A stretch of DNA of 64,000 bases from an archaeon (GTDB taxonomy: Archaea; Nanobdellota; Nanobdellia; Woesearchaeales; UBA9642): positions 33,003 to 97,002 of the forward strand of contig JAZDHK010000033.1 of assembly GCA_043806035.1 (NCBI GenBank), given 5' to 3'. Shown here one piece after another: positions 9,109 through 41,607 of the stretch (position 1 is the stretch's first letter; every line of letters begins with the position of its first letter). Both the position numbers and the translations under genes were made by a program. The notes under the pieces are model-generated. The model was not told where the DNA came from and ran no database searches. It worked only from the letters and a program-made list of their open reading frames with translations.

Positions 9109-12100
9109 ATGAAACATGCACTGTTCGTGCTAGTGCTGCTAGTCATCCCGCTCGCTCTCGCTGTCGATGTGCTACCAGGTAATCTCGTGACGAACAACGT
9201 CCAACCCACCATACACATCTTCTTCGACAAGAACACATCTGTTACCAACGCATCATTATGGAATGTTTCTGGACGCATGCCCGATACGTTCTTCTCCTAC
9301 GACCATGCCGTGAATGACACGACCCATTGGTATTTCAGCATAGAGCAGCCGTTGGCACACGGCAATTACAGCCTGCGATTCAACGCCACGGATGCACTCA
9401 ACAATTCTGACCCGAACAAGAGAGTTTATTTCTTCATCGACCTCATCAAGCCGAACATCACCGCACTCACCATGTATCCCTGGAGAAACGATTACTTGAA
9501 CGTCAGCAACCAAACTATAACTGTAACGACGATGGATAACCTTCCCGGCGTGCGCCTTATCGATGTCGTGCTGCGCAGGCAATCGACGACAACGAACATC
9601 ACTGCGCAGTTCAGGCAGATTACGTCCTGGGTATTTCAGGGCAATGCATCCATTCCTGATGGGAATTATACGCTGCTCGTGAACATCAGTGATGCTGGGG
9701 GCAATCGCGCAGACAGGAATCTTTCCTTCCTCATGAACGCAGAACCATTTCGCGTATTCTACGTTGCCCCTCCCTTCGGCTACACGGCAATAAACCCGTT
9801 TAATCTCACGCTGGGCACGAACAAGCAAGCCACCTGTTATTACAGCAAGAACAGGAACACGCCTTTCGGCAGCATGCTGCCCTTCACGGAGAGCGACGGC
9901 TTCAATCACCTCATTGCGAGCTTCCTGCTCGATGCAGCAATACAGAATATCACCGTCCAATGCATGATCCAAGAGGGAGGACTGAGTGACAGATTCAGCA
10001 TCGAATTAGGGTATGATGCGACACTGCCGAACATACAGGACATGAGCGTGCATCCCAACAACGGGCAACCCGTTATTAACGAGGACCTTGACAATGCCTA
10101 TCTTCGCGTACTAACTGATGATACGGCGCGATGCAAGTACAGTTTCAGCACGGATAACTATACGGATATGCTTCCGTTCGAAAATTTTTCCCAAGGAATA
10201 TTTGACGTATCAAACGCTCATTTCTTCAATGGGGAGATCGAGAATGGCAACAATTACACGGTCTTTGTACGCTGCGAGAATCGCGCAGGACTAATCAGCA
10301 GCGCACGCACCTTGCCGTTCAGTGTAGACTTGCAGGCAGCGGCAACGATAACCATCATTAGTCCATTGGCATACGTGCACAATCCCAATATTGTGTTCAA
10401 CATCACTACGACAGAAGCCACCACGTGCACGTATGACGGCAGGCCATTCGAGCATGGAGGAGGCACAAGAAATCTCTATACGGATCCCACGTGGTATGAG
10501 GACGGCAGCCACTCCGTCGTCATCGCATGCGAATTCCAGCAAGGCCTGCAAACCAAGAACGTGACGTTCATCGTCGATACCGTGCAGCCCAGCCAAGCCG
10601 TCATTGCCGTGGACAACATCAGCTGCAATCCCGAACGCATCACGGCAAGCTTCTCTGCCAACGACACGAACGGCATTCTCGGATACAATTACACCGTCAG
10701 TGGCCCAGGAGGTGTTGTCAAGGAATGGACATTCGGCAGCAGTGGAGAGTATAGCGGAGACTTGCAGGAGGGTGCCACGTACACGTGGAGGGCATACGCC
10801 ATCGACCGTGCAGGCAATGCAGGTCCTGAAGCCGCGCCCAAGAGTACGCGTGTGCTCAGTCCAGACAGCCTCTCGTGTGACGATACCTCTCCGCAGATTT
10901 CCTTCGATGCAGACACGGATCAAAATCAGATACGCATAATGGTTGATTGTTATGACAGCGATAGTGGCTGTGTCGACACGTTCTGGTATGATCTCAAGCT
11001 GTCCAGCAGCACCGCCTGCACATACACACGCTTGAGAAACATCAGCCAACCCGTGCTGCTCAATGATTCTGCAAAATTCTGTGCATTAGTGAAAGACAAG
11101 GCAGGAAACAATGCGACAAAGAGCGAATTCTTCTCCCTGCACATCAACGCAACGCACTGCAATAATTCGGAGAAGGATGGCGACGAATCCGACACGGACT
11201 GCGGCGGCAGCTGCTTGCCCTGCACGAAAGGGAAGCACTGCACGGACACGCAAGACTGCCTCGCCACGTTGTTTTGTGCCGCAAACAGCATATGCCAGCA
11301 ACCAACATGCAATGACACCATCAAGAATGGCCAAGAGTCAGATGTGGACTGCAGCGGTGATTGTCCTCCTTGTGCGCTCAACAAGACGTGCACAGTAGCG
11401 GTAGACTGCGAAAGCGGCTACTGTGCCAGCGGCAAGTGCAGCGTCGCCTCCTGCAACGACGGTGTGCAGAACGGCAATGAGTCAGACATTGATTGCGGCG
11501 GCCAATGCGTAAAGTGCGAGCTCAACAACCGTTGCGTGGTAGATGCTGACTGCATGTCCGGATTGTGCAAGCTGAGTTTCTGCACGAAGAAGATAGACGA
11601 GCAGGAGGTTCTGCCTCCCGAAGAGGCAAGCCACACGGCATCCATCGTGCTGCTCATCATCGGAGGACTGCTCATGCTCGGCGGTGCAGGATATCTGGTG
11701 TATGTCACCAAATTCGCATCACCGCCAGCCACCCCTCCTGCCATGCAGCAGAAACCACCGCAACGACCCGTGCTGCAGCAATCGAAAGGCCGTTTTCATT
11801 TCAAGAAGAGACCATCACTGCTGCCAACGCACTTCGCGCCAGCCCCGGAGAAGAAGCCGGTGCAGGAAGAGTATGTGGATGTTCGTGATTTGCAGACGAA
11901 GTCTGAAGAGAAAAGCGATGCCTTTAAAGAACTGGAAAAAGTGAGTTCTGATGTCAAGGATCCTTTCGCGGCATTGTCCAAAATAGGAGACAAGGCAATA
12001 GCGAATCTTGCGACAAAACGCCAGCTGGATACACAAGACATCGTCACGCTTGTCGAACATGCAGGGCAAGGACAGCAGCAGCTCACCGAGACCGTGCTGA

Positions 12101-12225
12101 AAAAACTCCTCTCAACCAATGCAATAACCAAGAAAGAGATCAGCGATGCGCTCTTCGAGCTTATGGACCAGCAGAAAATACGCTCGGACGATGCGCAGAA
12201 ATTCATGAGCGATCTCGACATCTAG
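9109..12225 (+). CDS. type I membrane surface protein: Sec signal peptide, Ig-like two-Cys modules, 3 Cys-rich repeats, TM helix, ~170-aa cytoplasmic tail
   Basis: GAGGTGAGG SD lies 3 nt upstream of the ATG. N-terminus MKHALFVLVLLVIPLALA|VD. DxAGN motifs (SDAGGN, IDRAGN, KDKAGN). TM helix ASIVLLIIGGLLMLGGAGYLVYV, followed by a Pro-rich then K/E-rich tail. Dense sequons occur only in the ectodomain. Confidence 0.88.
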   Translation: MKHALFVLVLLVIPLALAVDVLPGNLVTNNVQPTIHIFFDKNTSVTNASLWNVSGRMPDTFFSYDHAVNDTTHWYFSIEQPLAHGNYSLRFNATDALNNSDPNKRVYFFIDLIKPNITALTMYPWRNDYLNVSNQTITVTTMDNLPGVRLIDVVLRRQSTTTNITAQFRQITSWVFQGNASIPDGNYTLLVNISDAGGNRADRNLSFLMNAEPFRVFYVAPPFGYTAINPFNLTLGTNKQATCYYSKNRNTPFGSMLPFTESDGFNHLIASFLLDAAIQNITVQCMIQEGGLSDRFSIELGYDATLPNIQDMSVHPNNGQPVINEDLDNAYLRVLTDDTARCKYSFSTDNYTDMLPFENFSQGIFDVSNAHFFNGEIENGNNYTVFVRCENRAGLISSARTLPFSVDLQAAATITIISPLAYVHNPNIVFNITTTEATTCTYDGRPFEHGGGTRNLYTDPTWYEDGSHSVVIACEFQQGLQTKNVTFIVDTVQPSQAVIAVDNISCNPERITASFSANDTNGILGYNYTVSGPGGVVKEWTFGSSGEYSGDLQEGATYTWRAYAIDRAGNAGPEAAPKSTRVLSPDSLSCDDTSPQISFDADTDQNQIRIMVDCYDSDSGCVDTFWYDLKLSSSTACTYTRLRNISQPVLLNDSAKFCALVKDKAGNNATKSEFFSLHINATHCNNSEKDGDESDTDCGGSCLPCTKGKHCTDTQDCLATLFCAANSICQQPTCNDTIKNGQESDVDCSGDCPPCALNKTCTVAVDCESGYCASGKCSVASCNDGVQNGNESDIDCGGQCVKCELNNRCVVDADCMSGLCKLSFCTKKIDEQEVLPPEEASHTASIVLLIIGGLLMLGGAGYLVYVTKFASPPATPPAMQQKPPQRPVLQQSKGRFHFKKRPSLLPTHFAPAPEKKPVQEEYVDVRDLQTKSEEKSDAFKELEKVSSDVKDPFAALSKIGDKAIANLATKRQLDTQDIVTLVEHAGQGQQQLTETVLKKLLSTNAITKKEISDALFELMDQQKIRSDDAQKFMSDLDI
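11158..11583 (+). repeat. three tandem ~47-aa eight-Cys repeats (C-N-x4-[DN]-G-x-E-S-D-x-D-C-[GS]-G-x-C-x2-C ... D-C-x-[ST]-x2-C-x4-C)
   Basis: Read directly from the translation: CNNSEKDGDESDTDCGGSCLPC..., CNDTIKNGQESDVDCSGDCPPC..., CNDGVQNGNESDIDCGGQCVKC... Confidence 0.85.
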
Positions 12226-12462: not shown

Positions 12463-13038
12463 TTATCGTACCAAACAAACAGCTTGGCACTTGTGCTGCG
12501 AGATGACGACGAATACGAGCAATCCCCCGAGCACGAACGAGAACAAAGTATTGAGTGTGAAGCCTTCTGTCATCAGAAAATACAGCGTGCTACTTAGAAA
12601 AGACACAGCACCGATGACAACCAGAGGAAGGAATCGACGCCATGCTTTCGCACGGAACTGCTGCTCGTCATCGACGTAAGAGAAGATGGCAAAATAGATG
12701 CGTCTCCAGGTGTGATGGAAGACACATTTCAGGTGAGTCAACCGGTACCAGTAGAGCCACGGGTGATAGAAAAATCCTGACCGCAGGATGATGATAGTCG
12801 AGAGCCCGAAACCAAAAGCGAGTTTCAACCACAGCGGATACATATAGGCTTGCAATATGAAGAGTAGCAGTGCCATGCAGATACTATAGACTACAAGCAG
12901 AGCTTGCATACTAATCGGCTTGTGGCGGGCTATTTCAGTATAGAACTCTTCAATACGTCGATGAATACTCGTCGCTGACGATTTCTTAACGAGTTCGGCG
13001 ATATCGTCAGCAAGCAGTTTCCGTAAATCAGCGCGCAC
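12463..13038 (-). CDS. hypothetical polytopic membrane protein (191 aa)
   Basis: ORF with about 4-5 hydrophobic helices. No conserved motif recognised. Confidence 0.55.
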   Translation of the reverse strand: MRADLRKLLADDIAELVKKSSATSIHRRIEEFYTEIARHKPISMQALLVVYSICMALLLFILQAYMYPLWLKLAFGFGLSTIIILRSGFFYHPWLYWYRLTHLKCVFHHTWRRIYFAIFSYVDDEQQFRAKAWRRFLPLVVIGAVSFLSSTLYFLMTEGFTLNTLFSFVLGGLLVFVVISQHKCQAVCLVR

Positions 13039-13149: not shown

Positions 13150-13554
13150 TTATTTCATGAAGATCACGAACGCGAAGAACACGAAGACGATGCTCAGGGG
13201 GAAGAAGGTGAAGAACACAAATTTATTCCATCACCACACCTTCCTGCCGTCGAGCATAGCGACAGGCAGCATGTTGAACAAGGCAAGTCATGAGTTAATG
13301 AGCACGCCGAACAGACTGAGGACGTGCCAGATTCCCCGTAACAGCACCAACGGCAAGAAAAACAGTACGAGCAACAGATTCACTGCAGGCCCGACGACGG
13401 AGATGATGCCTTTCTGTTTCTTCGTGATGTGGCCTGAGATGTACACAGCACCCGGAGCGGCGAGGATGAATCCGAACAGACTAATCACCACCCCAGCAAC
13501 AGCATGTTGAAGTATGCACGAAACTCGGCGAAGCAGCTTCCAGACCGCAATCAT
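13150..13554 (-). pseudogene. decayed M50/site-2-protease-like gene with two in-frame TGA codons and a lost HExxH
   Basis: Minus-strand frame reads ...SCILQHAVAG...VVGPAVNLLLV...GVLINS-TGA-LALFNMLPVAMLDGRKVW-TGA-WNKFVFFTFFPLSIVFVFFAFVIFMK-TAA. GPxxN and N-x2-LA-x-FN-x-LP-x3-LDG are the M50 signature blocks and continue in frame across the stops. The position of H-E-x-x-H reads C-I-L-Q-H. Confidence 0.55.
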
Positions 13555-13581: not shown

Positions 13582-14091
13582 ATGAACGCGCAAGTGCAAA
13601 GCCAGATTTTCATTTACATCCTTGTTATAGTAGTTGTCGGTTTGCTGCTCCTGCTCGGCTACAAAGCCATCGGAAACTTGCGTAATGATGCGTGCAAGGT
13701 CAACGAGGTTAGCCTGAAAGCAGAGCTCGAGACTGCAGTCCAGGATAACAGCGCGTACAAGGCGTCTGACGTGAGAACATTCCAGGCGGGCTGTGCAGGC
13801 AGTGTGCTCTGCTTTGCTGACGCTGCTCTGGTAGAGGGCACGGGGGGCGTTGATTTTCCCTTGCAGCTCGGCAGGCCCGCAACGTATTTTTTTTACGTCA
13901 ATGACAGCATGAATGCGCACGTGCTAAGAAATGTGTTCATCCTGGACAATGAAGGCACGATGAACGAGCGGGCAATATTCATTCCTCGCGTCGAGGTGGA
14001 GCAGAACCTCACCTGCATCGAGGCAGTGCAGGGACTGTTCAAGGTGCGTTTTGAGGGCACGGGCAAGGGAACGAAGGTTTTCCCTGGGTGA
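13582..14091 (+). CDS. class III signal peptide (pilin-like) protein P1, 169 aa
   Basis: MNA|QVQSQIFIYILVIVVVGLLLLLGY N-terminus. An ATTAAAAG TATA-like box sits about 25 nt upstream. First gene of a tightly packed unit. Confidence 0.75.
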   Translation: MNAQVQSQIFIYILVIVVVGLLLLLGYKAIGNLRNDACKVNEVSLKAELETAVQDNSAYKASDVRTFQAGCAGSVLCFADAALVEGTGGVDFPLQLGRPATYFFYVNDSMNAHVLRNVFILDNEGTMNERAIFIPRVEVEQNLTCIEAVQGLFKVRFEGTGKGTKVFPG

Positions 14092-14094
14092 AGT

Positions 14095-15141
14095 ATGCAA
14101 AGAGGTGTGTTTGAGATCCAGTTCAACTGGATCTTCGTCATCATAGCAGGAGGCGTCATCCTCTTCTTTTTCCTGTCATTGATTAGCAAGCAGAAGGCGA
14201 CGAGCGACGAGTCCATCAACCAGGACGTGCTGCGCAGGCTCGACACCATCCTCATCAGCACCGAGCAAGGCTATCAGACGTACAAGGAATTGCATCTTGT
14301 CAAGACACAACTGACGTTCACATGCGAGGATACGTCTCCATCGCTGACGACGCAAGGCATCATCAGCAATTTGCAGATAGGCAGCTTCTCTGTTGACACA
14401 CCGACGCAGATACTCTTCACGCCACCCTCGCTCAATACGGACACGTTCCAATTATGGACGGACACATGGGACCAGCCGTTCCGCGTTTTGCCCTTTCTCT
14501 ACGTGACCGCCCCAGAAGTGTCCTTTTACATCGTCGAAACCACTCCGCCAGATCGTTCGCAGGAAATCTATGAATTACTGCCCGCAAATGTGAGCAAGAA
14601 ACTCATCACTGCTGCAGACATCAATTACTTGCCGAACAAGAACGACCAATACAGTGTGGTCATTTTTCTCGATGCAGCAGTCAATCTCGCAGATCCTCTG
14701 TATACTCCTTCGCAGCTGAAAGGTGACGTACGGGCAGTCAAGGTGGAATCTACTGGGGATGCTGGTGAGGTGACGTTTTACAAGAAATCGTTTGTGGGGA
14801 ATTTTTTCGAAAACGGGACGCTGCCTTTCATAGGCAACGAGATGCTCCTCGGGTCGATAGTGGCTGCGGACGCGCAGGCATACGCGTGCAATGTCAAGAA
14901 GGCGCTCGTGCGCTACAAGACCATTACTGAATTGCACCTTGCCCGGGTAATAAACCTGTCTGGCATGACCGATCCTACCTGCATAGGACCGTTGACCGCA
15001 GGACGAAGGACGCTCGAGTCCATGAACACAACGCTCAATTTCACAACGTCAGCGTTCCAGATGCTTGATTTATGCAGTACAGATTTGCAGACGAGCAATG
15101 AAGATCTCGTGAGAGGAAGACGATGCCCACTCATCTACTGA
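14095..15141 (+). CDS. pilin-like protein P2, 348 aa
   Basis: GGGTGA SD. MQRG|VFEIQFNWIFVIIAGGVILFFFLSLI. 3-nt gap after P1. Confidence 0.8.
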   Translation: MQRGVFEIQFNWIFVIIAGGVILFFFLSLISKQKATSDESINQDVLRRLDTILISTEQGYQTYKELHLVKTQLTFTCEDTSPSLTTQGIISNLQIGSFSVDTPTQILFTPPSLNTDTFQLWTDTWDQPFRVLPFLYVTAPEVSFYIVETTPPDRSQEIYELLPANVSKKLITAADINYLPNKNDQYSVVIFLDAAVNLADPLYTPSQLKGDVRAVKVESTGDAGEVTFYKKSFVGNFFENGTLPFIGNEMLLGSIVAADAQAYACNVKKALVRYKTITELHLARVINLSGMTDPTCIGPLTAGRRTLESMNTTLNFTTSAFQMLDLCSTDLQTSNEDLVRGRRCPLIY

Positions 15142-15605
15142 AGAAAGGACAATTGCAAATGCTCGAAAGCATAGGTGTCATCATCATCATAACCTTCCTC
15201 ATCTTCTTCAGCTTCAGCATCTACCAACGATTCCATGCCAGCGAGATAGCCAGGAAAAATCAGCAGCAGAACCAGCTTTCTGCCATCGATGTTGCAAATA
15301 GGATAGGGGAACTGCCAGAACTGCAGTGCAGCCACGTCGATGTTGTTACTGTAGGCTGTTTTGACCTGGTGAAAGTGCAAACCTTCGCAGCATTCGCAAC
15401 GTCTCCAGCATTCAGGCTCATGTACTATCCCCTCTTGAGGGAGAGCAGCATTACCGTCTACGAGACGTATCCTTCCCCACACAACTTCACCATCTACGAG
15501 CAGAATGCCACGAACACCAGCATACCATTCTTCATGCCTATAACTATCTACCACCCGCAAGAGCGAACGTATGGCTTCGGCTACATCGAGGTGCTCAAGG
15601 AATGA
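15123..15605 (+). CDS. pilin-like protein P3, 160 aa
   Basis: MPTHLLKKG|QLQMLESIGVIIIITFLIFFSF. 19-nt overlap with P2. Confidence 0.75.
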   Translation: MPTHLLKKGQLQMLESIGVIIIITFLIFFSFSIYQRFHASEIARKNQQQNQLSAIDVANRIGELPELQCSHVDVVTVGCFDLVKVQTFAAFATSPAFRLMYYPLLRESSITVYETYPSPHNFTIYEQNATNTSIPFFMPITIYHPQERTYGFGYIEVLKE

Positions 15606-16087
15606 AAGCACAGATGGAAATCATGGGGTTAGCTGTCATCGTCGTCCTCATTGCCCTGGGCATTTTCATCTTCATCGGATTGTCGGCACGGTTCGGCGAG
15701 GTCAACCAGATTGTGAAACCCGAAGCGTACAATGACGAGCGTCTAGCGACGACGTACGTTGATGCGCTCCTTCGAACATCCGTCCCTAGCTGTCATGCCT
15801 TGCATGTCGATGAACTGCTTCGCGACTGCGCCTTGAATAACAGGACGTGCGGTGCTTTGGGTAGTTGTGAGCTCGTGCAACTCGTCATCGAAAATGTCAC
15901 CAACGCCACGCTGGACGTGTGGGGGAAGAACTATTCCTTGAACGTCACGTATCCGTTGGGCACGAAAGGGATAAGCTTCAGCAAAGGACCTCCTTGCGTG
16001 CGAAGGTATGGTGTGGAGCCGTACACGGTGAGACTTCATCCGTTTCCGGGAGATGTGCTTGTAGAATTGTCCCTCTGCAAAAAATGA
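15602..16087 (+). CDS. pilin-like protein P4, 161 aa
   Basis: ATGA overlap with the P3 stop. MKA|QMEIMGLAVIVVLIALGIFIFIGL. Confidence 0.78.
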   Translation: MKAQMEIMGLAVIVVLIALGIFIFIGLSARFGEVNQIVKPEAYNDERLATTYVDALLRTSVPSCHALHVDELLRDCALNNRTCGALGSCELVQLVIENVTNATLDVWGKNYSLNVTYPLGTKGISFSKGPPCVRRYGVEPYTVRLHPFPGDVLVELSLCKK

Positions 16088-16103
16088 TGTGCTAAGAACA
16101 AAC

Positions 16104-16111
16104 AATATAAA
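16104..16111 (+). promoter_or_regulatory. TATA-like box (AATATAAA) about 27 nt upstream of the 31-aa ORF
   Basis: Spacing matches the other leaderless starts in this window. Confidence 0.4.
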
Positions 16112-16133
16112 CGTGTACGTCGGTTGAATCATT

Positions 16134-16229
16134 ATGACTATCGGTTTTTGGGCAAAGTTGCTCTTCATCTGCATCGTCTTGGGAGCACTCATCGTTATGA
16201 CAATAAAACTCGTGGGCATATTTTCGTGA
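16134..16229 (+). CDS. 31-aa hydrophobic micro-ORF s1 (below the ORF-track cutoff)
   Basis: ATG ACT ATC GGT ... TCG TGA translates to MTIGFWAKLLFICIVLGALIVMTIKLVGIFS. A TATA box sits at about -27. It ends 4 nt before P5. Confidence 0.35.
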   Translation: MTIGFWAKLLFICIVLGALIVMTIKLVGIFS

Positions 16230-16233
16230 ATGC

Positions 16234-17160
16234 ATGGAAACTAAACCTTTGGCAACGGTTATTATGGCAGTCATCATAGCCGTGCTACTCTTAGGGATGC
16301 TTGCATACTCTATCGCTACTATCAAGAAGTTTGAGGACAGGGACAAGTGCAGGCTCACCTCGTGGGCGCAGGCGAACAGCCAATACCAGCCAGGCATTGC
16401 AGGCATCATTCCAGGACCAAAGTTCGATTTAGGATTACGCCAAGACTGCCCAACCTATTACGTGACGTTCACCAAGGACAAGGTCACGGAGAGGAAAAGC
16501 AACAGCGACGACACGGAAGTGCTCAGCGTCTATGACAGCACACGGGGGAAACTGGTACAAAAGTACAAGCAGCTCACACCAGACATGGTCAACAGCGTCG
16601 TCGCAGAACAAATGCGTTACTGCTACTACCAGTTCTGGGAAGGCAAAGTGCCTGTCTTTTACAACAAGTATACGGACATCAATGTTTTATCAACGATTGC
16701 ATTCGGTGTTGTTGGTGTTGCACTGACCCATGCGAACAACGTCCGCTGCTTTCCCTGTGCGGAATTGCACTTCAGCGACAGTGTTGATTATGACTCAAAC
16801 AAAGGCAGTGGTCTGTCCGTGCAAAACCTTCCAGAAACACAACTCCCCCCTTCTGAAAATACGGCAAGCATAGGCTATTATTTGGTCAACAGGAAAGGCA
16901 AGAACATGAACAGCACGTATTTTGATTATTTGAACAGCTACAACGGCTACTGCCAACTTACGACGGGCAAGCAGGGAAGCTGCCTGGCTGAAGAGCTCAA
17001 TGACATGGACATAGATCCCTATCTCGTGCTGGAAAAAGACAAGTACTACAAAGTCTTGCTTATCAGGAGGGGAGAGGAACGGGACGAGTACACCATAACA
17101 TCGTATGTTGTCCCTGCTGATCGGGAAGCAAAGATATGCACGGAGGGCATGGTGTCATGA
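16234..17160 (+). CDS. N-terminally anchored secreted protein P5, 308 aa (paralog of P6)
   Basis: METKPLATVIMAVIIAVLLLGMLAYSIA, with no clear K/R-G motif. Shares EQMRYCYYQFWEGKVPVF ... VRCFPCAELHF with P6. Confidence 0.78.
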   Translation: METKPLATVIMAVIIAVLLLGMLAYSIATIKKFEDRDKCRLTSWAQANSQYQPGIAGIIPGPKFDLGLRQDCPTYYVTFTKDKVTERKSNSDDTEVLSVYDSTRGKLVQKYKQLTPDMVNSVVAEQMRYCYYQFWEGKVPVFYNKYTDINVLSTIAFGVVGVALTHANNVRCFPCAELHFSDSVDYDSNKGSGLSVQNLPETQLPPSENTASIGYYLVNRKGKNMNSTYFDYLNSYNGYCQLTTGKQGSCLAEELNDMDIDPYLVLEKDKYYKVLLIRRGEERDEYTITSYVVPADREAKICTEGMVS

Positions 17161-18041
17161 AGGCACAAATAAGCAGTCTCTTGCTCGTCACCATTGTCAC
17201 GATACTGACCTTGCTCGTCGTGCTGCTCGTCATGTCCGGCATATTCTCGAGCACGAATGATGCCTTTGCGTACAAGGACTGCCAGGCGAGCGTGGAAAAA
17301 TTCATCGCCCGCACAAAATTGACGAAAGATTACACGACGGCGAGCATCACGTGCAGGACGAGAACGGTGAATGTACGCGCCACTGATCAGGAACAGGTGA
17401 AACGGCAACTTGCGGAGGAAATGCGCAGCTGCTGGTCAACATTCAAACAAGGTAATGTACGGTTCTTCGTTGAAGAGGGCACGTACTGCCACCCCTGTGC
17501 TATTGTCAATTTTAATAAGAGAATGAAACCGATTACTGATTTCAATGCGTACTTGGCGCAAAGGAAGATGACGAGCAGCAACCTCACGTATGCGGCTTAT
17601 TTTATAGGTTACAGCACGCCTGGAGGACAGGAATTAGCAGTCTTCACAGATAATGCAAGTTTTGGAAATGCTCTTCTCCTTGATCCGCAGAAGCATTATG
17701 TCGTGCTGTTCCACCACATGATGGGCATGGAAACCATACGACAATTCAAAGAAAGAATAGGCGGTGAGACGAACGCAGTATTTTTAGGCATTGGAGCGGG
17801 GGGTGCCGCTGCTGGAGTTGTGGGTATTATTCTTGTTACTGCAGGAGTTGTTTCTGGACCCATAGGCTGGATCATCTTGGGCGCAGGCATGGTCATAGGG
17901 GGGGTGATTGCAGACATTTGGGGAGACCCTCCAGAATGGGTGAGCAGCATCATGCTTATAGAATACAAGCCGGGAGAACTCGAGAGGCTCGGCTGCCAAT
18001 TTGATGAAGTGCAGCAGGACATGTTCGGCAACCTAAACTAA
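17157..18041 (+). CDS. pilin-like protein P6, 294 aa, with a C-terminal glycine-zipper TM pair
   Basis: ATGA overlap with the P5 stop. MKA|QISSLLLVTIVTILTLLVVLLV. EEMRSCWSTFKQGNVRFF ... YCHPCAIVNF. C-terminus GIGAGGAAAGVVGIILVTAGVVSGPIGWIILGAGMVIGGVIA. Confidence 0.78.
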   Translation: MKAQISSLLLVTIVTILTLLVVLLVMSGIFSSTNDAFAYKDCQASVEKFIARTKLTKDYTTASITCRTRTVNVRATDQEQVKRQLAEEMRSCWSTFKQGNVRFFVEEGTYCHPCAIVNFNKRMKPITDFNAYLAQRKMTSSNLTYAAYFIGYSTPGGQELAVFTDNASFGNALLLDPQKHYVVLFHHMMGMETIRQFKERIGGETNAVFLGIGAGGAAAGVVGIILVTAGVVSGPIGWIILGAGMVIGGVIADIWGDPPEWVSSIMLIEYKPGELERLGCQFDEVQQDMFGNLN

Positions 18042-18044
18042 ACA

Positions 18045-18053
18045 TTTATAAAA
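18045..18053 (+). promoter_or_regulatory. TATA box (TTTATAAAA) about 27 nt upstream of the 45-aa ORF
   Basis: Located immediately after the P6 stop. The spacing implies a leaderless transcript starting at ATG 18076. Confidence 0.45.
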
Positions 18054-18075
18054 TTAGTTCACGCCTTGCACGGGC

Positions 18076-18213
18076 ATGCATGGCCAGAAAAGCACTTTGA
18101 AGGAGATGATCGTTCTTGCAGCGGTGATTATCATTTTCATCATCATTTTGTCGTTTTTATTCAAGGACAAGGTTTCCAACCTGGTCGATAGCATCATTTC
18201 CGTATTCCACTAA
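18076..18213 (+). CDS. 45-aa Flp-like mini-pilin candidate s2 (below the ORF-track cutoff)
   Basis: MHG|QKSTLKEMIVLAAVIIIFIIILSFLFKDKVSNLVDSIISVFH. It has its own TATA box. The TAA stop lies 2 nt before the P7 ATG. Confidence 0.5.
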   Translation: MHGQKSTLKEMIVLAAVIIIFIIILSFLFKDKVSNLVDSIISVFH

Positions 18214-18215
18214 CT

Positions 18216-19013
18216 ATGAAAGGACAACTCAACAAGCAACTGTTGGGCTTCATCATGCTAGCCATTGCAATCATCATGGCATACTTGTTGCTCACGCACG
18301 GCAGAGACTATGCATTCAAGATGCAATACTGGCTCTTCGGACCACCATCCGACGATGATGATCGTGCACACTACTATTTTGATCGCATGGCAGAATTCCT
18401 CGAGAGCTCCGCAGTGACGGACGATTTCTCGAAAAAATTGCCAACAGAGGTACCTTGCCTGCTTTCACGGTATGCGTACGATGAGGACAAGCCGCTCTCG
18501 AGCAAGTACTTCTTCAGCGTCGACTATGAAGGGCCTGCAGACAACCAGCAGGGCAACAAGGCATACGTCTTGCACATGCACGTGCAAACGCCATCAGGCT
18601 TCATTGATAATGCCTCAAAAAGACTGGGCGTGCAGACGTTCAGGTATAGGTGCTCTGCAATCGAGCCAAAAGTGAACAGACCTCCCGTCATGCTCGCGCA
18701 GGACGCATTCCTTTGTGGAGTGAACCCCCCTGCACGGTACATACTTCTCCCGGACCAGCACGTTGCAGGTATGCCGTTCCTGCAGGACTACGCCCAAATA
18801 AACAAGACCACGAACACGTACTACTTTTCCCGCTACCCTTCATTGTACATCTTTGCAGACACGGCAAACCCTGTTGAAGAGGACAAATACCGATCCTACT
18901 TTTACGTCTTCGACCCCGCAGACAGCATGTACAAGGCAAGCTCGACTCGAGACAGCATACTGCGCAGCCTGCAAGAGATTCCCTCCTGCACGTTCAAGAA
19001 GCGGAAGACGTGA
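18216..19013 (+). CDS. pilin-like protein P7, 265 aa
   Basis: MKG|QLNKQLLGFIMLAIAIIMAYLLL. Confidence 0.78.
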   Translation: MKGQLNKQLLGFIMLAIAIIMAYLLLTHGRDYAFKMQYWLFGPPSDDDDRAHYYFDRMAEFLESSAVTDDFSKKLPTEVPCLLSRYAYDEDKPLSSKYFFSVDYEGPADNQQGNKAYVLHMHVQTPSGFIDNASKRLGVQTFRYRCSAIEPKVNRPPVMLAQDAFLCGVNPPARYILLPDQHVAGMPFLQDYAQINKTTNTYYFSRYPSLYIFADTANPVEEDKYRSYFYVFDPADSMYKASSTRDSILRSLQEIPSCTFKKRKT

Positions 19014-19036
19014 CTGCGGCCGCAGCATCCGAAACC

Positions 19037-19044
19037 TTTAAATA
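19037..19044 (+). promoter_or_regulatory. TATA box (TTTAAATA) upstream of P8
   Basis: About 45 nt upstream of ATG 19088, which has a GAGGTGA SD. Confidence 0.4.
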
Positions 19045-19087
19045 GTGAAAGAGCGGCTGTATTTCTAAAAGTTTCGAGGTGACGGTT

Positions 19088-19342
19088 ATGAAGAAAGGTG
19101 TGGAACTTTCTATGAATGTCATCATCATTGCAGCAATAGCACTCGTTGTTTTGGTGATATTGGTGGTGCTTGTCCTAAACAGCGCAGGGCCTGTGGCGGA
19201 CACGAACAAGTGTGGCGCGGGGCAAGGCATGTGCATCGGAGAAGGCGATGAGTGTGGTGACGGCTACATCGTGCAGCCGTTGAGCAACTGCCCGACAGCA
19301 ACGCCGAAATGCTGCGTACCCTTTGGCGGCGAGCAGCAATAA
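19088..19342 (+). CDS. mini-pilin P8 with a six-Cys C-terminal knob, 84 aa
   Basis: GAGGTGA SD. MKKG|VELSMNVIIIAAIALVVLVILVVLVL, then C-x6-C-x6-C-x11-C-x6-CC. Confidence 0.82.
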   Translation: MKKGVELSMNVIIIAAIALVVLVILVVLVLNSAGPVADTNKCGAGQGMCIGEGDECGDGYIVQPLSNCPTATPKCCVPFGGEQQ

Positions 19343-19352
19343 AGGTGCAAGC

Positions 19353-19589
19353 ATGAGAAGAGGTGTGGAACTTTCTCTTAATTTTATCATTATTGCGGTC
19401 ATCGTGCTCGTCATCCTGCTCATAGCCATCGTTCTCGTCATCAATGGCGGCACGAGCTTCAATAGGGACACGAAGACCTGCACGTCAAGAGGAGGACAGT
19501 GCATTCCGGGAGGGGACAGTTGCCCTTCTGGCTCGATACCTGTTCCTGGCGTAGAGGGATGTGACGGCAGCTGCTGCCTCGGGGCATAG
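19353..19589 (+). CDS. mini-pilin P9 with a six-Cys knob, 78 aa (tandem paralog of P8)
   Basis: AAGGTG SD. MRRG|VELSLNFIIIAVIVLVILLIAIVLVI, then C-x6-C-x6-C-x12-C-x3-CC. Shares the 15-mer ggtgtggaactttct with P8. Confidence 0.82.
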   Translation: MRRGVELSLNFIIIAVIVLVILLIAIVLVINGGTSFNRDTKTCTSRGGQCIPGGDSCPSGSIPVPGVEGCDGSCCLGA

Positions 19590-19592
19590 CTC

Positions 19593-19721
19593 ATGAGGAG
19601 TACAGAGCTGGCGATGAACAGCATCGTCACCATGGCCGTTGCTGCCTGTCTCTGTTGTTCATCTACTCAGGTGATGGTTCAATTAACGAATGCTGCATAT
19701 CAGGTGAGAGTTGTTGCATAG
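19593..19721 (+). CDS. 42-aa degenerate third copy of the VELS mini-pilin N-terminus (s3), possibly a remnant
   Basis: MRSTELAMNSIVTMAVAACLCCSS... aligns with the [KR]-G-VELS-[ML]-N-x-I-I-I start of P8/P9. The hydrophobic stretch is short. Confidence 0.3.
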   Translation: MRSTELAMNSIVTMAVAACLCCSSTQVMVQLTNAAYQVRVVA

Positions 19722-19725
19722 ACAT

Positions 19726-21420
19726 ATGAAGAAAGGCATGGCTGCCCTGGAGTTTGTCGGCTACTTGCTGCTGATGCTCGTGGTCATTCTAGTAGCGATG
19801 TATCTCATCAATGGAGGAATAAGCATGTTTGGCATGGCTACCGGCTGTGAAGGGCAGAACGGCGTGTGCAAGGAATCCTGTGGTGAGAATGAACGAACGG
19901 TCATTTTCTTCAAGGGCTGTCCCCCGTCTGATGACAGGGCAGATAAGGAGAAGAAGCACTGCTGCGCCCCGCAAAAAGAAGATCAGGAAGGAGGCAGCGA
20001 GAGTGATGCGAAGTGCAAGAACCAAAATAATGGGTACGCCTGCGGCAATGGCACGCTCAGATACGGCAATAGAAACATTCCCTTCGTTTCCATGGTGTGC
20101 TTAGACCAGAAATGCGTGCCTCGCTGCGACTTTTGTGCAAGAGTCCTGGGCAGCGATACTGTTTGCAATCCGCTGCCAGGCGTGAATCAAGAAGTCACGT
20201 TCACTGATGCTTTCTCGTGCAGAGCCATGGAAAGTCCTCTGGATTGTGATGCACTCAACCTGCATGGTGACTGCATCAGAGGCTTCTGCCCGGGTGACAC
20301 GTACTGTGCAAAACGAGACGGCAATGGAGCGAGAGATGGTGAATTGTACATCCGCTATTCCGACCAGCCAGAATACTGTGCGGGAGACTGCGCCTTGCCT
20401 GGCACAATCGTGATCGTCGGTGACCCATTACGCCTCACCGTCAGTTACTCTGGACCGGACAGGAAGCTCTGCGCGGTAGATGTACTCAGAGAGGATGGGC
20501 AAGCCAACAAATTCGTCAGGCAGTTCACACCAGCATGCAGGAACGTTTCCTTAGATAATGGTCCATGCTCATTCAGGTGGGTGTTTGAATGCGGAGGAGA
20601 TGCACCTGCATTCGTGCTCGAGAATGACCCATTGCAGTTTCTAGTGAACAGTTCAGAATATGAATTGTTGAAGAATGTGCCCTTGCGTATCGATGTCATC
20701 GCCTATAATTGTGACGTCAGCGATAAGCAGGGCAACGTCCAGACGAGTCCTTGCCAGGACAAGGGAAGAAACGAATTAGCCCACGCCCGCATTTCTCTCG
20801 ACTTAATGAAGCCGTCATCTGCAGAGCTGCGCAAAAGAAATCCCATAATCACCATAGCATCATCCAATCCATCGACGAAATCCTGCATTGTTACCTGCAA
20901 GAACTCATTGGGGGAGCAGTGTGGGCCGCTGAACTACCTGGGTGTGGGTGCAGGAGAGCAGTGTGGGGAGAACTTGAACTGGGAGGGAAATTTGCCCACA
21001 CTAGCCTACAACAAGTGGAACGAACAGCCAATAGACAGAACAGCAAACCCTGTATTGTGCTTCAGAGGCAGGCTCACGAGCAACCCGCTCTTCGTTAATT
21101 ACACGACAGACCCTAACGGGTGTGAGCGGTTCTTCTACCAGAAAGTAGCGGAGGAGCAAGTGTGCCTGTGGAACAGCTGTGCACAAATTTCTGATGCTGC
21201 ACAATGTGAAGACACGCTCAGCCAAGGCTGCAGCTTCAGCTGTATTTGGGATAATGTGAAAAAGACGTGCCGGCTGTGCAGCACGCCCGAAACCCAATGC
21301 AAGTACATCAGAGACAGGGCTGCCTGTGATGCTGCAGCAGAAAAGTGCGGCATGCAATGCCACTGGCGGCGACGATTCCTGTTCCTGCCTGACACGTGCG
21401 AGCCGGGGCCGAGACCATGA
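19726..21420 (+). CDS. pilin-like, extremely Cys-rich secreted protein P10, 564 aa
   Basis: MKKG|MAALEFVGYLLLMLVVILVAMYLI, then knob C-x6-C-x3-C-x12-C-x13-CC. About 44 Cys by my count (an even number). Confidence 0.82.
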   Translation: MKKGMAALEFVGYLLLMLVVILVAMYLINGGISMFGMATGCEGQNGVCKESCGENERTVIFFKGCPPSDDRADKEKKHCCAPQKEDQEGGSESDAKCKNQNNGYACGNGTLRYGNRNIPFVSMVCLDQKCVPRCDFCARVLGSDTVCNPLPGVNQEVTFTDAFSCRAMESPLDCDALNLHGDCIRGFCPGDTYCAKRDGNGARDGELYIRYSDQPEYCAGDCALPGTIVIVGDPLRLTVSYSGPDRKLCAVDVLREDGQANKFVRQFTPACRNVSLDNGPCSFRWVFECGGDAPAFVLENDPLQFLVNSSEYELLKNVPLRIDVIAYNCDVSDKQGNVQTSPCQDKGRNELAHARISLDLMKPSSAELRKRNPIITIASSNPSTKSCIVTCKNSLGEQCGPLNYLGVGAGEQCGENLNWEGNLPTLAYNKWNEQPIDRTANPVLCFRGRLTSNPLFVNYTTDPNGCERFFYQKVAEEQVCLWNSCAQISDAAQCEDTLSQGCSFSCIWDNVKKTCRLCSTPETQCKYIRDRAACDAAAEKCGMQCHWRRRFLFLPDTCEPGPRP

Positions 21421-22085
21421 GGGGAGAGGCAACACATGATCAAGTGATAGGGTTCATCATACTTGTCTTCATCCTGGTGGCTGTTGTTTTTGGCATTTAT
21501 TGGAAATTCTTTCACAAGAGCGAGCAGCAAATAGCTGACTTAGAAAGTTGCGGAACGTTCAGCATCGTCGTCGCTGGCGACAGCCTGACGCGGCCAGGAG
21601 AATGCATTGTTGGAAAATGCCCGACGGACAGGCAATACAAGCAAGTGCCTGGAATGTGCGATCCAGGAATGGTGTGCTGTGTGGATCAATCATTGGAAAC
21701 GGATGTTCCTGTGCTCATGTACCGGCTCAAGGGAGAGGATACTCGGAAGTACAAGCCAATGCAAGGCAGCATAAATCTCGAAAAGGGCAAGAAATACGTC
21801 TTCAAGATGCCACAGCTCACCGAGCAGCAGGATGCAGTATCGTGTGCAATCACCATGTACGAAGTCGATGATTTTGAGCAATTGCCCACGCAAGAGGGAG
21901 GCAATGACAACAGCGCCAGAGACGAGCGCATTGACTGGGCAAAAAACAACTGCATTGAGAATGCGACAACATGGATGGATATAATCTTTCCCGAAGAGGC
22001 CAATTATTTGCTGTTCATCAAGAGTATTGACTCCTCAGGGGAGGAACTCGTCGTTGAGCCTGTTGAGCTGAGCGTGGTCTCGTGA
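21417..22085 (+). CDS. pilin-like protein P11, 222 aa
   Basis: ATGA overlap with the P10 stop. MRG|EATHDQVIGFIILVFILVAVVFGIY. Knob C-x17-C-x4-C-x12-C-x5-CC. Confidence 0.75.
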   Translation: MRGEATHDQVIGFIILVFILVAVVFGIYWKFFHKSEQQIADLESCGTFSIVVAGDSLTRPGECIVGKCPTDRQYKQVPGMCDPGMVCCVDQSLETDVPVLMYRLKGEDTRKYKPMQGSINLEKGKKYVFKMPQLTEQQDAVSCAITMYEVDDFEQLPTQEGGNDNSARDERIDWAKNNCIENATTWMDIIFPEEANYLLFIKSIDSSGEELVVEPVELSVVS

Positions 22086-23512
22086 ACGGCAGCCTTGATT
22101 TTCATTTCCTTCTTGAAGCGATCATGATTTCCATCATCGTGCTCTTCATCTTTGGTTGCGTCAATGGTGCATACCATTCGTTGACGAACGCTGACGATAG
22201 GCAGGTGAGCCTGAACAACTTCAACGCCTTAGCAACGGGCATGCAGAGTCTCGTGAACGTGCAGGACAGAGTCATGGTACAAGGCATGACCTTCTCTCTC
22301 CCTGCCAGAGTATACGTTGTCGGCTTTGACAGCGAATGGAATGAGAATGTCAAGCAGGCAGGATTGACAGATGACAGCTCCTATGAAGGTGTGCACAAGC
22401 CACAACAATGCTTGGTGAACGAGCATTCGCCAGAGGATGCTTGCTTGTGCTTGTACGAGAATGAGCAATTCGCCTACATGCACGGTAGCGAGAACAGGTT
22501 TGGAAAATTAAGTCCAGAAGAACGCATCAAGGCGTACGAAAAGCCCATCATGGCCTGCTACGTGTTCTCCTCAAAACCCGATGTGGCGGGGAGGTTTAAG
22601 CCAATAGTCTTCCTTAGCACGTGGGCAAGCAGCGACAGTCCCGTTGCAGAGAATGCAAAAAAGCCGTTCTTTGCAACAGTCCGTCCAGACCAGCCTCCGT
22701 ATGCTGGCGTCTTGGGAAGCAAGGATAACGAAGCAGGAAAATATGCATTCCTCATCTTCAAAGGCAATGACAAAACCCACACGCTCTACTACGAAAAGTA
22801 TGAGACCGACGAAAAAATTTACATTTACCTTACCACGAAAGTAGCGACACAGGACCTTTCCTTCAGAGAGTACGAACTCAAAAAACAGGCAGGATATTGC
22901 AGCGACAACAGCCATGCCAATTGTGCGGGAAAGACCATAGGAACGAGCATAGGCACGGGAAGGTATGGCAATACGCTCGACGAATGGTATGCTGTTAGTC
23001 AAGGAAGGTATGCGCAAGCAGCACCCTCTGCGGTGTGCAACGGCCGTTTCACGTGCGAACCAATATCAGAGGAGAAAGGATGCAGGATCGTCTGCCAGCC
23101 GTACTGCATAGAGCAGTGCAAAGACCAGAACTGCAAGGCAGCAGTCATCACGGAAAAGTGCGAATGCAACGGCATCAAATTTTCTGGCTACTGCGCATGC
23201 ACGCAGGACGTCACCACTGGCACGTGCCCCGCCATTGACGGCATTCCCACCCTGCTCTATCACGACCAAGTCATCCAGGGATACGGCGATGCATTGCAGC
23301 AATGCATTGCCGAACACATTGCAGACGACGCGTATGTCGAAGATCAGCTGAAGAGCATAGTGCATTATGCATCAGATGACTATGCCGACTGTAGTTTTGA
23401 GCGTCTCGATGGTGACGATGCGTTCAGTGCATGCGAGCACGATGTGTGCATGGCATCGGCGAACCCTTCCTGTGTGATTGCTGCAGAAGACAGATGCACG
23501 CCTCGACGATAA
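22082..23512 (+). CDS. pilin-like protein P12 with a Cys-rich C-terminal region, 476 aa
   Basis: GTGA overlap with the P11 stop. (M)NG|SLDFHFLLEAIMISIIVLFIFG. C-terminal CNGRFTCEPISEEKGCRIVCQPYCIEQCKDQNC... Confidence 0.75.
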   Translation: MNGSLDFHFLLEAIMISIIVLFIFGCVNGAYHSLTNADDRQVSLNNFNALATGMQSLVNVQDRVMVQGMTFSLPARVYVVGFDSEWNENVKQAGLTDDSSYEGVHKPQQCLVNEHSPEDACLCLYENEQFAYMHGSENRFGKLSPEERIKAYEKPIMACYVFSSKPDVAGRFKPIVFLSTWASSDSPVAENAKKPFFATVRPDQPPYAGVLGSKDNEAGKYAFLIFKGNDKTHTLYYEKYETDEKIYIYLTTKVATQDLSFREYELKKQAGYCSDNSHANCAGKTIGTSIGTGRYGNTLDEWYAVSQGRYAQAAPSAVCNGRFTCEPISEEKGCRIVCQPYCIEQCKDQNCKAAVITEKCECNGIKFSGYCACTQDVTTGTCPAIDGIPTLLYHDQVIQGYGDALQQCIAEHIADDAYVEDQLKSIVHYASDDYADCSFERLDGDDAFSACEHDVCMASANPSCVIAAEDRCTPRR

Positions 23513-41082: not shown

Positions 41083-41544
41083 TCATCCCCTCTTTTCTTC
41101 CTTCAAGAGTTTTATTTCTTGTTCGAATGTTTTCAAGTCGGCAAAGTCTTTGTAGACGCTAGCGAATCTGATGTATGCGACAGCATCAAGGTTCCTGAGT
41201 TTTTTCATCACCAGCTCGCCTATGTGTTGGCTGCTGATCTCGATACTGTTCTGCCTGCGTAATGTCCGTTCGATATCGTCTACTGCTTTCTCGATCCGTT
41301 CCTTGTCTACGGGACGTTTCTGGCAGGCTTTGAGCAGGCCCATGAGCATTTTGTTCCTGTCGAATTTTTCTTTCGAACCATCTTTTTTGATAACGCTTAA
41401 TTCTATCTCTTCGATGCGCTCAAAGGTGGTGAAGCGCTTTTCGCACTTGAGGCATTCTCTTCTGCGCTTGAGCACGTCCGCCTCATCGTTGTCGCGGGAT
41501 TCCAGAACTTTTGTCTCTGCATGAGCGCAATACGGACATTTCAT
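41083..41544 (-). CDS. nrdR: transcriptional repressor NrdR
   Basis: MKCPYCAHAETKVLESR...CLKCEKRFTTFE zinc ribbon plus ATP-cone. Start at MKCPYC. 3-nt gap to nrdJ. Confidence 0.92.
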   Translation of the reverse strand: MKCPYCAHAETKVLESRDNDEADVLKRRRECLKCEKRFTTFERIEEIELSVIKKDGSKEKFDRNKMLMGLLKACQKRPVDKERIEKAVDDIERTLRRQNSIEISSQHIGELVMKKLRNLDAVAYIRFASVYKDFADLKTFEQEIKLLKEEKRG

Positions 41545-41576
41545 AACCCACCTTGTCACTGTGCAAGAGCAAAAAA

Positions 41577-41592
41577 ACACTGTATTTAGTGT
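41577..41592. promoter_or_regulatory. NrdR box 1 (ACACTGTATTTAGTGT)
   Basis: 16-bp palindrome matching the acaCwAtATaTwGtgt consensus, 33 nt upstream of the nrdR ATG. Confidence 0.8.
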
Positions 41593-41607
41593 TTTTTTGC
41601 TCAAAAA

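Follow-up and report, generated by a model that had tools for sequence, protein, structure and literature searches.

Here we report the analysis of a 64,000-nt stretch of archaeal DNA (Woesearchaeales; UBA9642), comprising forward-strand positions 33,003-97,002 of contig JAZDHK010000033.1 in assembly GCA_043806035.1 and hereafter called the window, in which a tandem array of 15 open reading frames (ORFs) at positions 13582-23512 of the + strand encodes proteins whose N-termini resemble archaeal class III signal peptides. The best reading of these 15 ORFs is a stand-alone operon of type IV pilin-like proteins combined with giant adhesins, in an uncultured relative of Woesearchaeota (DPANN), and the cluster probably builds an undescribed surface structure for attachment to other cells. 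A literature search found no paper describing this cluster.

Organization of the locus

The 15 ORFs are separated by intergenic gaps of -19 to +74 nt and occur in the order P1, P2, P3, P4, s1, P5, P6, s2, P7, P8, P9, s3, P10, P11, P12, downstream of two genes for very large surface proteins, G1 and G2. Coordinates below are those of the window, and the arrow marks the predicted processing site.

G1, 2-9097, + strand: giant secreted protein, >3011 aa (amino acids); Ig-like and glucodextranase-B-like domains, 120 N-glycosylation sequons
G2, 9109-12225, + strand: surface protein, 1038 aa; Sec-type signal peptide, Big_13 domains, Cys-rich repeats, C-terminal membrane anchor
P1, 13582-14091, + strand: 169 aa, MNA↓QVQSQIF followed by a helix; pilin-like core family
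P2, 14095-15141, + strand: 348 aa, MQRG↓VFEIQFNW followed by a helix; signature family of the locus and largest member of the conserved P1-P4 block
P3, 15123-15605, + strand: 160 aa, MPTHLLKKG↓QLQMLES followed by a helix; pilin-like core family
P4, 15602-16087, + strand: 161 aa, MKA↓QMEIMGL followed by a helix, 6 Cys; pilin-like core family
s1, 16134-16229, + strand: hydrophobic mini-protein of 31 aa, motif absent
P5, 16234-17160, + strand: 308 aa, N-terminal helix, no cleavage motif (METKPLATV...); paralogue of P6
P6, 17157-18041, + strand: 294 aa, MKA↓QISSLLL followed by a helix; Gly-rich hydrophobic hairpin toward the C-terminus
s2, 18076-18213, + strand: 45 aa, MHG↓QKSTLKEM followed by a helix; small conserved protein
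P7, 18216-19013, + strand: 265 aa, MKG↓QLNKQLLG followed by a helix; no Pfam match
P8, 19088-19342, + strand: 84 aa, MKKG↓VELSMNV followed by a helix; domain of ~45 aa with 6 Cys
P9, 19353-19589, + strand: 78 aa, MRRG↓VELSLNF followed by a helix; paralogue of P8
s3, 19593-19721, + strand: 42 aa, MRS↓TELAMNSIV; short diverged relative of P8 and P9
P10, 19726-21420, + strand: 564 aa, MKKG↓MAALEFV followed by a helix; P9-like N-terminal module and a large domain, 44 Cys
P11, 21417-22085, + strand: 222 aa, MRG↓EATHDQV followed by a helix, 8 Cys
P12, 22082-23512, + strand: 476 aa, GTG start, MNG↓SLDFHFLL followed by a helix, 25 Cys; last gene of the cluster

The G1 frame is open at the left edge of the window, its N-x-S/T sequons amount to 4 per 100 aa, and it has no C-terminal anchor. 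G2 begins 11 nt downstream of G1 with its own signal peptide and membrane anchor and has a cytoplasmic tail of ~190 aa. The combination of a P9-like N-terminus with a large additional domain makes P10 a modular pilin-like protein.

The N-terminal motif

A strongly hydrophobic stretch of 19 residues, starting at residue 6-16 and having a mean Kyte-Doolittle value of 1.9-4.0, is present in all 15 ORFs; an initial annotation of this DNA had described hydrophobic stretches of 18-25 residues after the leaders. In 12 of the 15 the helix follows a leader of 3-9 residues that ends in [K/R/N/H][G/A]; these are the same 12 that had been counted before, and all twelve quoted N-termini were found in the sequence as written. 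The upper limit of the previously given leader length, 2-9 residues, was reproduced; the lower limit found here is three. The G/A rule for position -1 is basically right and should read G/A/S, given s3 and the homologues: s3, which had been described as degenerate and is indeed a short diverged relative of P8 and P9, fits the motif when Ser is accepted at -1, which raises the count to 13 of 15. P5 and s1 have no motif, in agreement with the earlier reading. Under the strict rule [KR][GAS], the number of matching ORFs is only 10 of 15. The residue at +1 is Gln in six of the 13 motif-bearing ORFs (P1, P3, P4, P6, s2, and P7), in line with the earlier remark that Gln is often found there, and V, M, E, S, or T in P2, P8-P12, and s3.

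The motif is concentrated in the locus. When long ORFs were scored for a hydrophobic 17-mer preceded by [KRNH][GA] in residues 1-12, the pattern was found in 8 of 9 ORFs inside the locus vs 1 of 50 elsewhere in the window (Fisher p = 3.6e-8), which bears out the earlier impression that it is too consistent for chance. After paralogues were collapsed to ~10 independent lineages, G/A/S followed the basic residue in 8 of 10 (background 0.21, binomial p = 1e-4). A chance origin of the motif is excluded by these enrichment statistics. The short leaders of P6, P8, P9, P10, and P11 rest on an internal ATG instead of the longest ORF, a choice supported by the agreement of the orthologues on a related contig, L001, and by the tight packing of the genes; even the starts of the longest ORFs give leaders of at most 14 residues.

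These N-termini agree, as far as sequence can indicate, with the published description of archaeal class III signals, which have the processing site before the hydrophobic domain, G/A/S at -1, and a critical charged residue at -2 (PMC4371748). Substrates of the peptidase EppA additionally need Gln at +1, and the N-termini of Epd pilins read RA↓QI, KG↓QV, KG↓QL, and KG↓QI (PMC4371748). The earlier assignment to the archaeal prepilin pattern is thus supported by published criteria, and also by the orthologue conservation and the P2 and P3 models described below, cleavage itself being a prediction.

Conservation and synteny in relatives

A single-sequence search with P2 among 5.8 billion proteins returned one close homologue (43% identity), located on L001 (Joint Genome Institute sample 3300017613). 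This contig, the closest relative, has the same gene order as the window, including proteins of 3156 aa, the G1 orthologue, and 1028 aa directly upstream. The orthologues are 23-59% identical (34% for Q10, the orthologue of P10) and keep the motif, also at identities of 25-45%, with the N-termini MKG↓Q (Q1), MKQG↓V, MNKA↓Q, MKKG↓T (Q5), MKKG↓Q, MQKKG↓V, MKKG↓M, MKRG↓M, and MKG↓E (Q12), and MYTMKKG↓Q in the s2 orthologue (qs2). Third-party gene calls in L001 and in a further locus, L033, yield identical N-termini. The position equivalent to s1 is occupied in L001 by a 37-aa ORF, likewise without the motif, and s3 is not found there; a counterpart of s2 stands at the same position in L031 as a 46-aa ORF beginning MKSKKA↓E. 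Since the P5 orthologue Q5 (L001:12125-12964) begins MKKG↓T, the motif was probably lost from P5 in the lineage of the window, and this lineage-specific loss could offer a natural experiment on the need for cleavage in that subunit.

Scanning a genome collection with the P2 signature FEIQFNW revealed 31 loci, of which the informatively labelled ones belong to metagenome-assembled genomes (MAGs) of Woesearchaeota, Nanoarchaeota, or Nanoarchaeia; the label 'uncultured Methanosarcinales' on ~12 of the 31 is taken to be mis-assigned. The upstream part of the locus in these relatives consists of a large Cys-rich protein, a 403-aa pilin-like protein, and a giant protein of 1700-2700 aa, which are followed by P1, P2, P3, P4, two or three P8-type genes, a gene of the P5/P6 type, and about ten more genes. 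The P8 family (n=65) typically has 2-3 tandem copies per locus, and the G2 family lies immediately 5' of P1 in 29 of 32 related loci. A further scan, centred on the 403-aa family (fam10) and relying on synteny only, found the cluster on 59 metagenome contigs, where it always starts with the large Cys-rich gene.

Across the 32 related loci, an N-terminal helix is present in 400 of 484 + strand ORFs. In an alignment anchored on the last K/R ahead of the helix, the next residue is G/A/S in 307 of 390 sequences (79% vs a background of 21%; p about 1e-131), and the following position is Gln in 149 of 390 (38% vs 3.7%). The giant proteins encoded in these loci provide an internal control: their Sec-type signal peptides follow the rule in only 4 of 33 cases. 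About 17 families, mutually unrelated by BLAST, each start with KK[G/A/S]↓Q and a helix, and profile-profile comparison of P1, P3, and P4 detected similarity only in the first 28-30 residues. A search with a concatenated P1-P2-P3-P4-P8 profile gave no matches.

The individual families show the same picture. In the P3 family (791 representatives at 50% identity), 125 diverse members were compared, and the residue at -1 was A/S/G in 115/117, that at +1 Gln in 114/117, and that at -2 K/R in 105/117. An acidic residue is fixed at +6 (Glu) in the P3 family, and the P2 and P4 families have one fixed at +3. In the P1-P4 and P8 families, conservation is highest over the N-terminal 30 residues (mean column identity 0.58-0.71 vs 0.28-0.49 elsewhere), a pattern that pilins typically show and simple membrane anchors usually do not; the P5/P6 families have no such N-terminal peak. 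The P2 family comprises 325 clusters, all of them lacking a Pfam domain and listed under no source name other than 'hypothetical protein'.

Two local features of these loci were also recorded. Residues ~207-250 of P6 form a second, Gly-rich hydrophobic hairpin (GIGAGGAAAGVVGIILVTAGVVSGPIGWIILGAGMVIGGVIADIWG) that is also present in the orthologues from L001, L015, L020, L023, and L025 and is unusual for a pilin-like protein. In one MAG (L012:3440-9889), P1 and P2 are separated by an insertion of five genes; three of them resemble 5-enolpyruvylshikimate-3-phosphate synthase, shikimate kinase, and chorismate synthase, as judged by eye from their N-termini, and the arrangement may reflect a rearrangement or mis-assembly.

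Structure models and extracellular signature

AlphaFold2 models based on deep alignments were built for two proteins, P2 and P3, the P3 alignment being drawn from representative-library sequences. The P2 model (predicted local distance difference test score, pLDDT, 89.8; predicted template modelling score, pTM, 0.85) has a continuous helix at residues 11-58 (48 residues) followed by strands and C-terminal helices, and the P3 model (pLDDT 94.2, pTM 0.80) has a helix at residues 4-62 (59 residues) followed by a six-stranded domain. Both helices are predicted to run 25-35 residues past the membrane segment, as those of type IV pilins do. In these models, P2 and P3 agree with what is expected of a pilin, namely a long N-terminal helix of ~50 residues and a globular beta-sheet domain.

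The composition of the proteins carries an extracellular signature. Cys makes up 3.9% of the residues in the operon proteins vs 1.2% in the cytoplasmic proteins of the window, and G1 and G2 contain 3-4 N-glycosylation sequons per 100 residues. A 587-aa secreted protein with DsbA/Thioredoxin_4 and GILT domains is encoded at 33233-34996 on the - strand, and this oxidoreductase could form the disulphides of the Cys-rich cluster proteins such as P10 and P12.

Proposed function of the cluster

We propose that the N-termini are class III signals and that the proteins are pilin-like building blocks of a structure of the type IV filament kind, a reading to which we give a probability of about 0.7. In this scheme, Sec would insert each protein so that its N-terminal helix lies in the membrane, and an A24-family membrane aspartic peptidase of the PibD or EppA kind, encoded elsewhere, would cut the leader of 3-9 residues after G/A/S; the frequent Gln at +1 suggests an EppA-like enzyme. 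The mature N-terminal helices would then pack the subunits into a filament-like surface structure, assembled by an ATPase of the FlaI/PilB type and a platform protein of the FlaJ/TadC type, both presumably encoded elsewhere. The roles of individual subunits are proposed with much less confidence than the overall reading. P8 and P9, with their ~80 aa, tandem copies, conserved helix, and small disulphide knob, are likely to be the bulk subunit and thus candidate major pilins; the universally conserved P1-P2-P3-P4 block is likely a minor-pilin core that starts or caps the fibre; and the large Cys-rich proteins P10-P12 would, together with the giant glycoproteins G1 and G2, likely be its adhesive parts. 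The structure would probably serve to attach the archaeon to a host cell or some surface.

Several observations weigh against this proposal. No secretion ATPase, platform protein, or A24-family peptidase is encoded in the 64-kb window, where SufC is the sole protein with a Walker A motif and the polytopic membrane proteins are limited to a transporter of the major facilitator superfamily, a three-helix protein without a family match, and the remnant of an M50 protease gene. On the flanks of the related clusters, none of the three assembly components was found within ~10 kb to either side, a stretch covered starting at P2 in 32 loci and at the more upstream fam10 in the 59 metagenome contigs. 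The 32 loci around P2 contain no secretion ATPase and no protein with at least four transmembrane helices, and their Walker A matches are an apparent shikimate kinase within an insertion and a fortuitous hit in one of the giant proteins. The ATPase, platform protein, and peptidase, if they exist, would therefore be encoded elsewhere. At the sequence level, the residue at -2 is uncharged in three of the 12 window proteins (N in P1, H in s2, and N in P12), for which the L001 orthologues have K. An acidic residue, previously placed at +2 to +7, is present within +1 to +7 in 10 of 13 window proteins, at varying positions and not fixed at +5, the position of Glu in EppA substrates. No curated Pfam or NCBIfam family, pilin and class III signal models included, matched at threshold among the cluster proteins of the window, 56 P8-family members, and 118 P3-family members; the sub-threshold matches were to UpsA pilin, TadE, and Flp1-like models, and the weak UpsA matches in 7 of the 56 P8-family members (best E 0.007) count in favour of the proposal. 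Foldseek searches of the PDB with the P2 and P3 models found no pilin or other similar solved fold (best E 6e-3 for P2 and 7e-2 for P3, TM-scores <=0.32), and a sequence profile of the P8 family retrieved from the PDB only matches with E > 0.7, among them the 'flagellin-like protein' 8rey_M at E = 1.5. Finally, a groundwater study states that DPANN genomes lack type IV pilus components, and used pili to distinguish bacteria of the candidate phyla radiation (CPR) from DPANN archaea (10.1101/2020.05.14.094862).

On this last point the literature is divided. Pili of the Epd type ('system 1'), which combine many minor pilins with large adhesins, occur in DPANN (PMC4858521; bioRxiv 10.64898/2026.04.22.720090), Aap-like systems have also been reported in some DPANN, and Nanohaloarchaeota and Undinarchaeota have clusters of ATPase, platform, and peptidase genes 'with no pilins annotated' (PMC9563170).

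Three groups of genes were considered as candidates for the assembly functions and rejected. Those between P1 and P2 in L012 and L009 look like shikimate-pathway and unrelated small genes, respectively, and none resembles a secretion ATPase or platform in its composition; the conserved genes upstream of the cluster resemble, by eye, those for TATA-binding protein, an RNase P p30-like protein, and MCM, again with no ATPase-, platform-, or peptidase-like member; and the two membrane ORFs that separate G2 from P1, considered as the peptidase, are a protein matching no family and the M50 remnant with two stops.

The lack of a nearby peptidase and of a match to curated pilin models, the presence of exactly one N-terminal transmembrane helix per protein, and the functioning of P5 and s1 without the motif are what would be expected if the N-termini were uncleaved signal anchors of ordinary bitopic (type II) membrane proteins in an envelope complex, with the basic and small residues arising from the positive-inside rule and N-terminal preferences rather than from a peptidase site. 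The positive-inside rule fails to explain the enrichment of G/A/S and of Gln in ~17 unrelated families, and the near-invariance of the motif in the P3 family is left unaccounted for. Sec-type signal peptides in the same loci are without the motif, membrane anchors are rarely the best-conserved part of a protein, yet here they are, and the modelled helices extend beyond the membrane segment in a pilin-like manner. We consider uncleaved anchors improbable, marginally more so than a reading in which the leaders are cleaved and the products form a short cell-bound pseudopilus or a scaffold of the 'bindosome' kind for exporting, anchoring, or displaying G1 and G2 and, in other Woesearchaeota, murein hydrolases. 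Such a scaffold would suit the position of the giant proteins, always directly upstream in the same orientation, the enzyme-bearing pilin-like proteins of related loci, and the ~17 pilin-like families per locus, far beyond the needs of a simple fibre; class III signals on surface proteins that do not form filaments are known from the Sulfolobus bindosome (PMC4371748). It is less compatible with the small duplicated P8-type subunit, whose highly conserved helix resembles that of a bulk fibre subunit, and the lack of assembly genes in cis counts equally against it and against a filament. We regard a scaffold as unlikely.

That the pattern arose from the choice of start codons or by chance among hydrophobic ORFs has in its favour that five of the short leaders need an internal ATG. 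The same N-termini appear in the gene calls of others for L001 and L033, and the motif is conserved in hundreds of homologues. An artefact of this kind was rejected on the enrichment in the window, the L001 orthologues, the 32-locus alignment, and the near-invariance in the P3 family, and its probability is negligible.

Comparison with known systems

The closest known system is the Epd pilus ('system 1' or clade 1 of the archaeal type IV filaments) of Methanococcus maripaludis and its relatives, which is processed by the peptidase EppA. The two share short leaders with K/R-G/A followed by Gln at +1 (RA↓Q and KG↓Q in EpdA-E; PMC4371748), many minor pilin-like proteins, a very small major pilin of ~70 aa that is often multicopy, and large adhesin-like proteins in the locus. 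They differ in that Epd loci contain an ATPase, two platform genes, and EppA, none of which is present in the window or beside the related clusters, and in the number of pilin-like genes, 15-20 from ~17 families here, which is more than described for Epd. The cluster proteins have no match to curated pilin models or known folds, and the acidic residue lies at +2 to +7 instead of +5. The giants have Big_13 and glucodextranase-B-like domains, with DUF2341 not detected in those of the window, and relatives of the cluster carry enzyme-bearing subunits. Because of these differences the cluster was not filed as an Epd locus, but it is placed within the type IV pilin-based kind.

The minor-pilin core of bacterial type IVa pili and type II secretion systems (FimU-PilVWX and GspHIJK, with PilY1 as tip adhesin) resembles the cluster in layout only: four consecutive pilin-like genes, of which P2 (~340 aa) is about twice the size of the other three (~160 aa), adjoin a very large adhesin-like protein. 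No sequence or fold similarity was detected, and the domain of life and the type of peptidase differ. P10, P12, and the murein-hydrolase proteins of related loci recall modular pilins such as PilB of Streptococcus sanguinis (PMC8179133) in joining a pilin-type N-terminus to a large module; here, the modules are Cys-rich domains or VanY/M15, Amidase_2, and SLT enzymes, and the proteins are archaeal. The Sulfolobus bindosome shares the use of class III signals on surface proteins other than classical pilins (PMC4371748) and differs in its substrate-binding-protein domains, which are missing here, as well as in lacking the organization as a single long operon. Type IV pili used for episymbiosis by CPR bacteria of the Saccharibacteria (PMC9894109, PMC11623550) are similar in belonging to an ultra-small host-dependent lineage with possible pilin-based attachment; those bacterial systems have recognisable PilA/B/C/D, whereas here only unannotated subunit genes are seen.

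Murein-hydrolase members in related loci

The last gene but one of the cluster in the main Woesearchaeota clade belongs to a family that joins the KK[G/A/S]↓Q-helix N-terminus to murein-degrading modules; an example is located at L018:17766-18806, and other members occur in L003-L031. Among the 16 members, VanY was detected in 10, Peptidase_M15 in 9 (best E 4e-12), Amidase_2 in 3 (1.5e-28), and an SLT transglycosylase in 1. The family is absent from the cluster of the window, and P7 and P12 were tested as diverged copies of it and rejected. To our knowledge, archaea have no murein, an indication that the apparatus comes into contact with bacterial walls in at least the lineages with murein-hydrolase members. 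These members offer a testable clue to archaeon-bacterium interaction in some lineages.

On a bolder interpretation, which we advance tentatively and hold to be doubtful, the cluster would encode a host-contact organelle specific to DPANN, that is, a type IV-like filament with >15 unrelated pilin-like families, giant glycoprotein adhesins, and, in most Woesearchaeota, murein hydrolases, acting as a wall-piercing pilus for attachment to, and breaching of, bacterial cells. If so, bacteria would be indicated as hosts of Woesearchaeota, and the statement that DPANN lack type IV pili would reflect an annotation gap.

Woesearchaeota and their relatives are abundant, uncultured, and tiny archaea that are thought to live attached to other cells; we know of no established host or means of attachment for them. 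The conserved block spans 20-25 kb, a considerable part of genomes this small, and its products are all surface proteins, either giant adhesins or proteins with pilin-type N-termini, every pilin-like member being annotated as 'hypothetical' and belonging to no Pfam family. Its recognition provides targets for metaproteomics, antibodies, and cryo-electron tomography, as well as new pilin families with probably new folds.

Neighbouring genes

The gene next after P12 encodes a purine-nucleoside phosphorylase, and the genes flanking the cluster in the window are archaeal housekeeping genes, including those for RNA polymerase subunit D, archaeal-type uS4 and uS13, PCNA, and a short-chain prenyl diphosphate synthase, which identifies the organism as archaeal. 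The window has an insertion between G2 and P1, two genes that directly overlap in L001; it consists of a 191-aa membrane ORF (12463-13038, - strand) and the remnant of an M50 (site-2 protease) gene (13150-13554, - strand; Pfam PF02163, 27.4 bits). The remnant has two in-frame TGA codons (13290-13288 and 13233-13231) within the conserved NxxLAxFNxLP...LDG motif and a degenerate HExxH motif, and it is probably a pseudogene because TGA serves as a normal stop in the neighbouring genes, as seen in ATGA overlaps. Farther downstream, a clear homologue of NrdR (41083-41604, - strand; TIGR00244, 196 bits) adjoins a ribonucleotide reductase gene; as NrdR is a mainly bacterial regulator, this archaeon may have acquired it by gene transfer.

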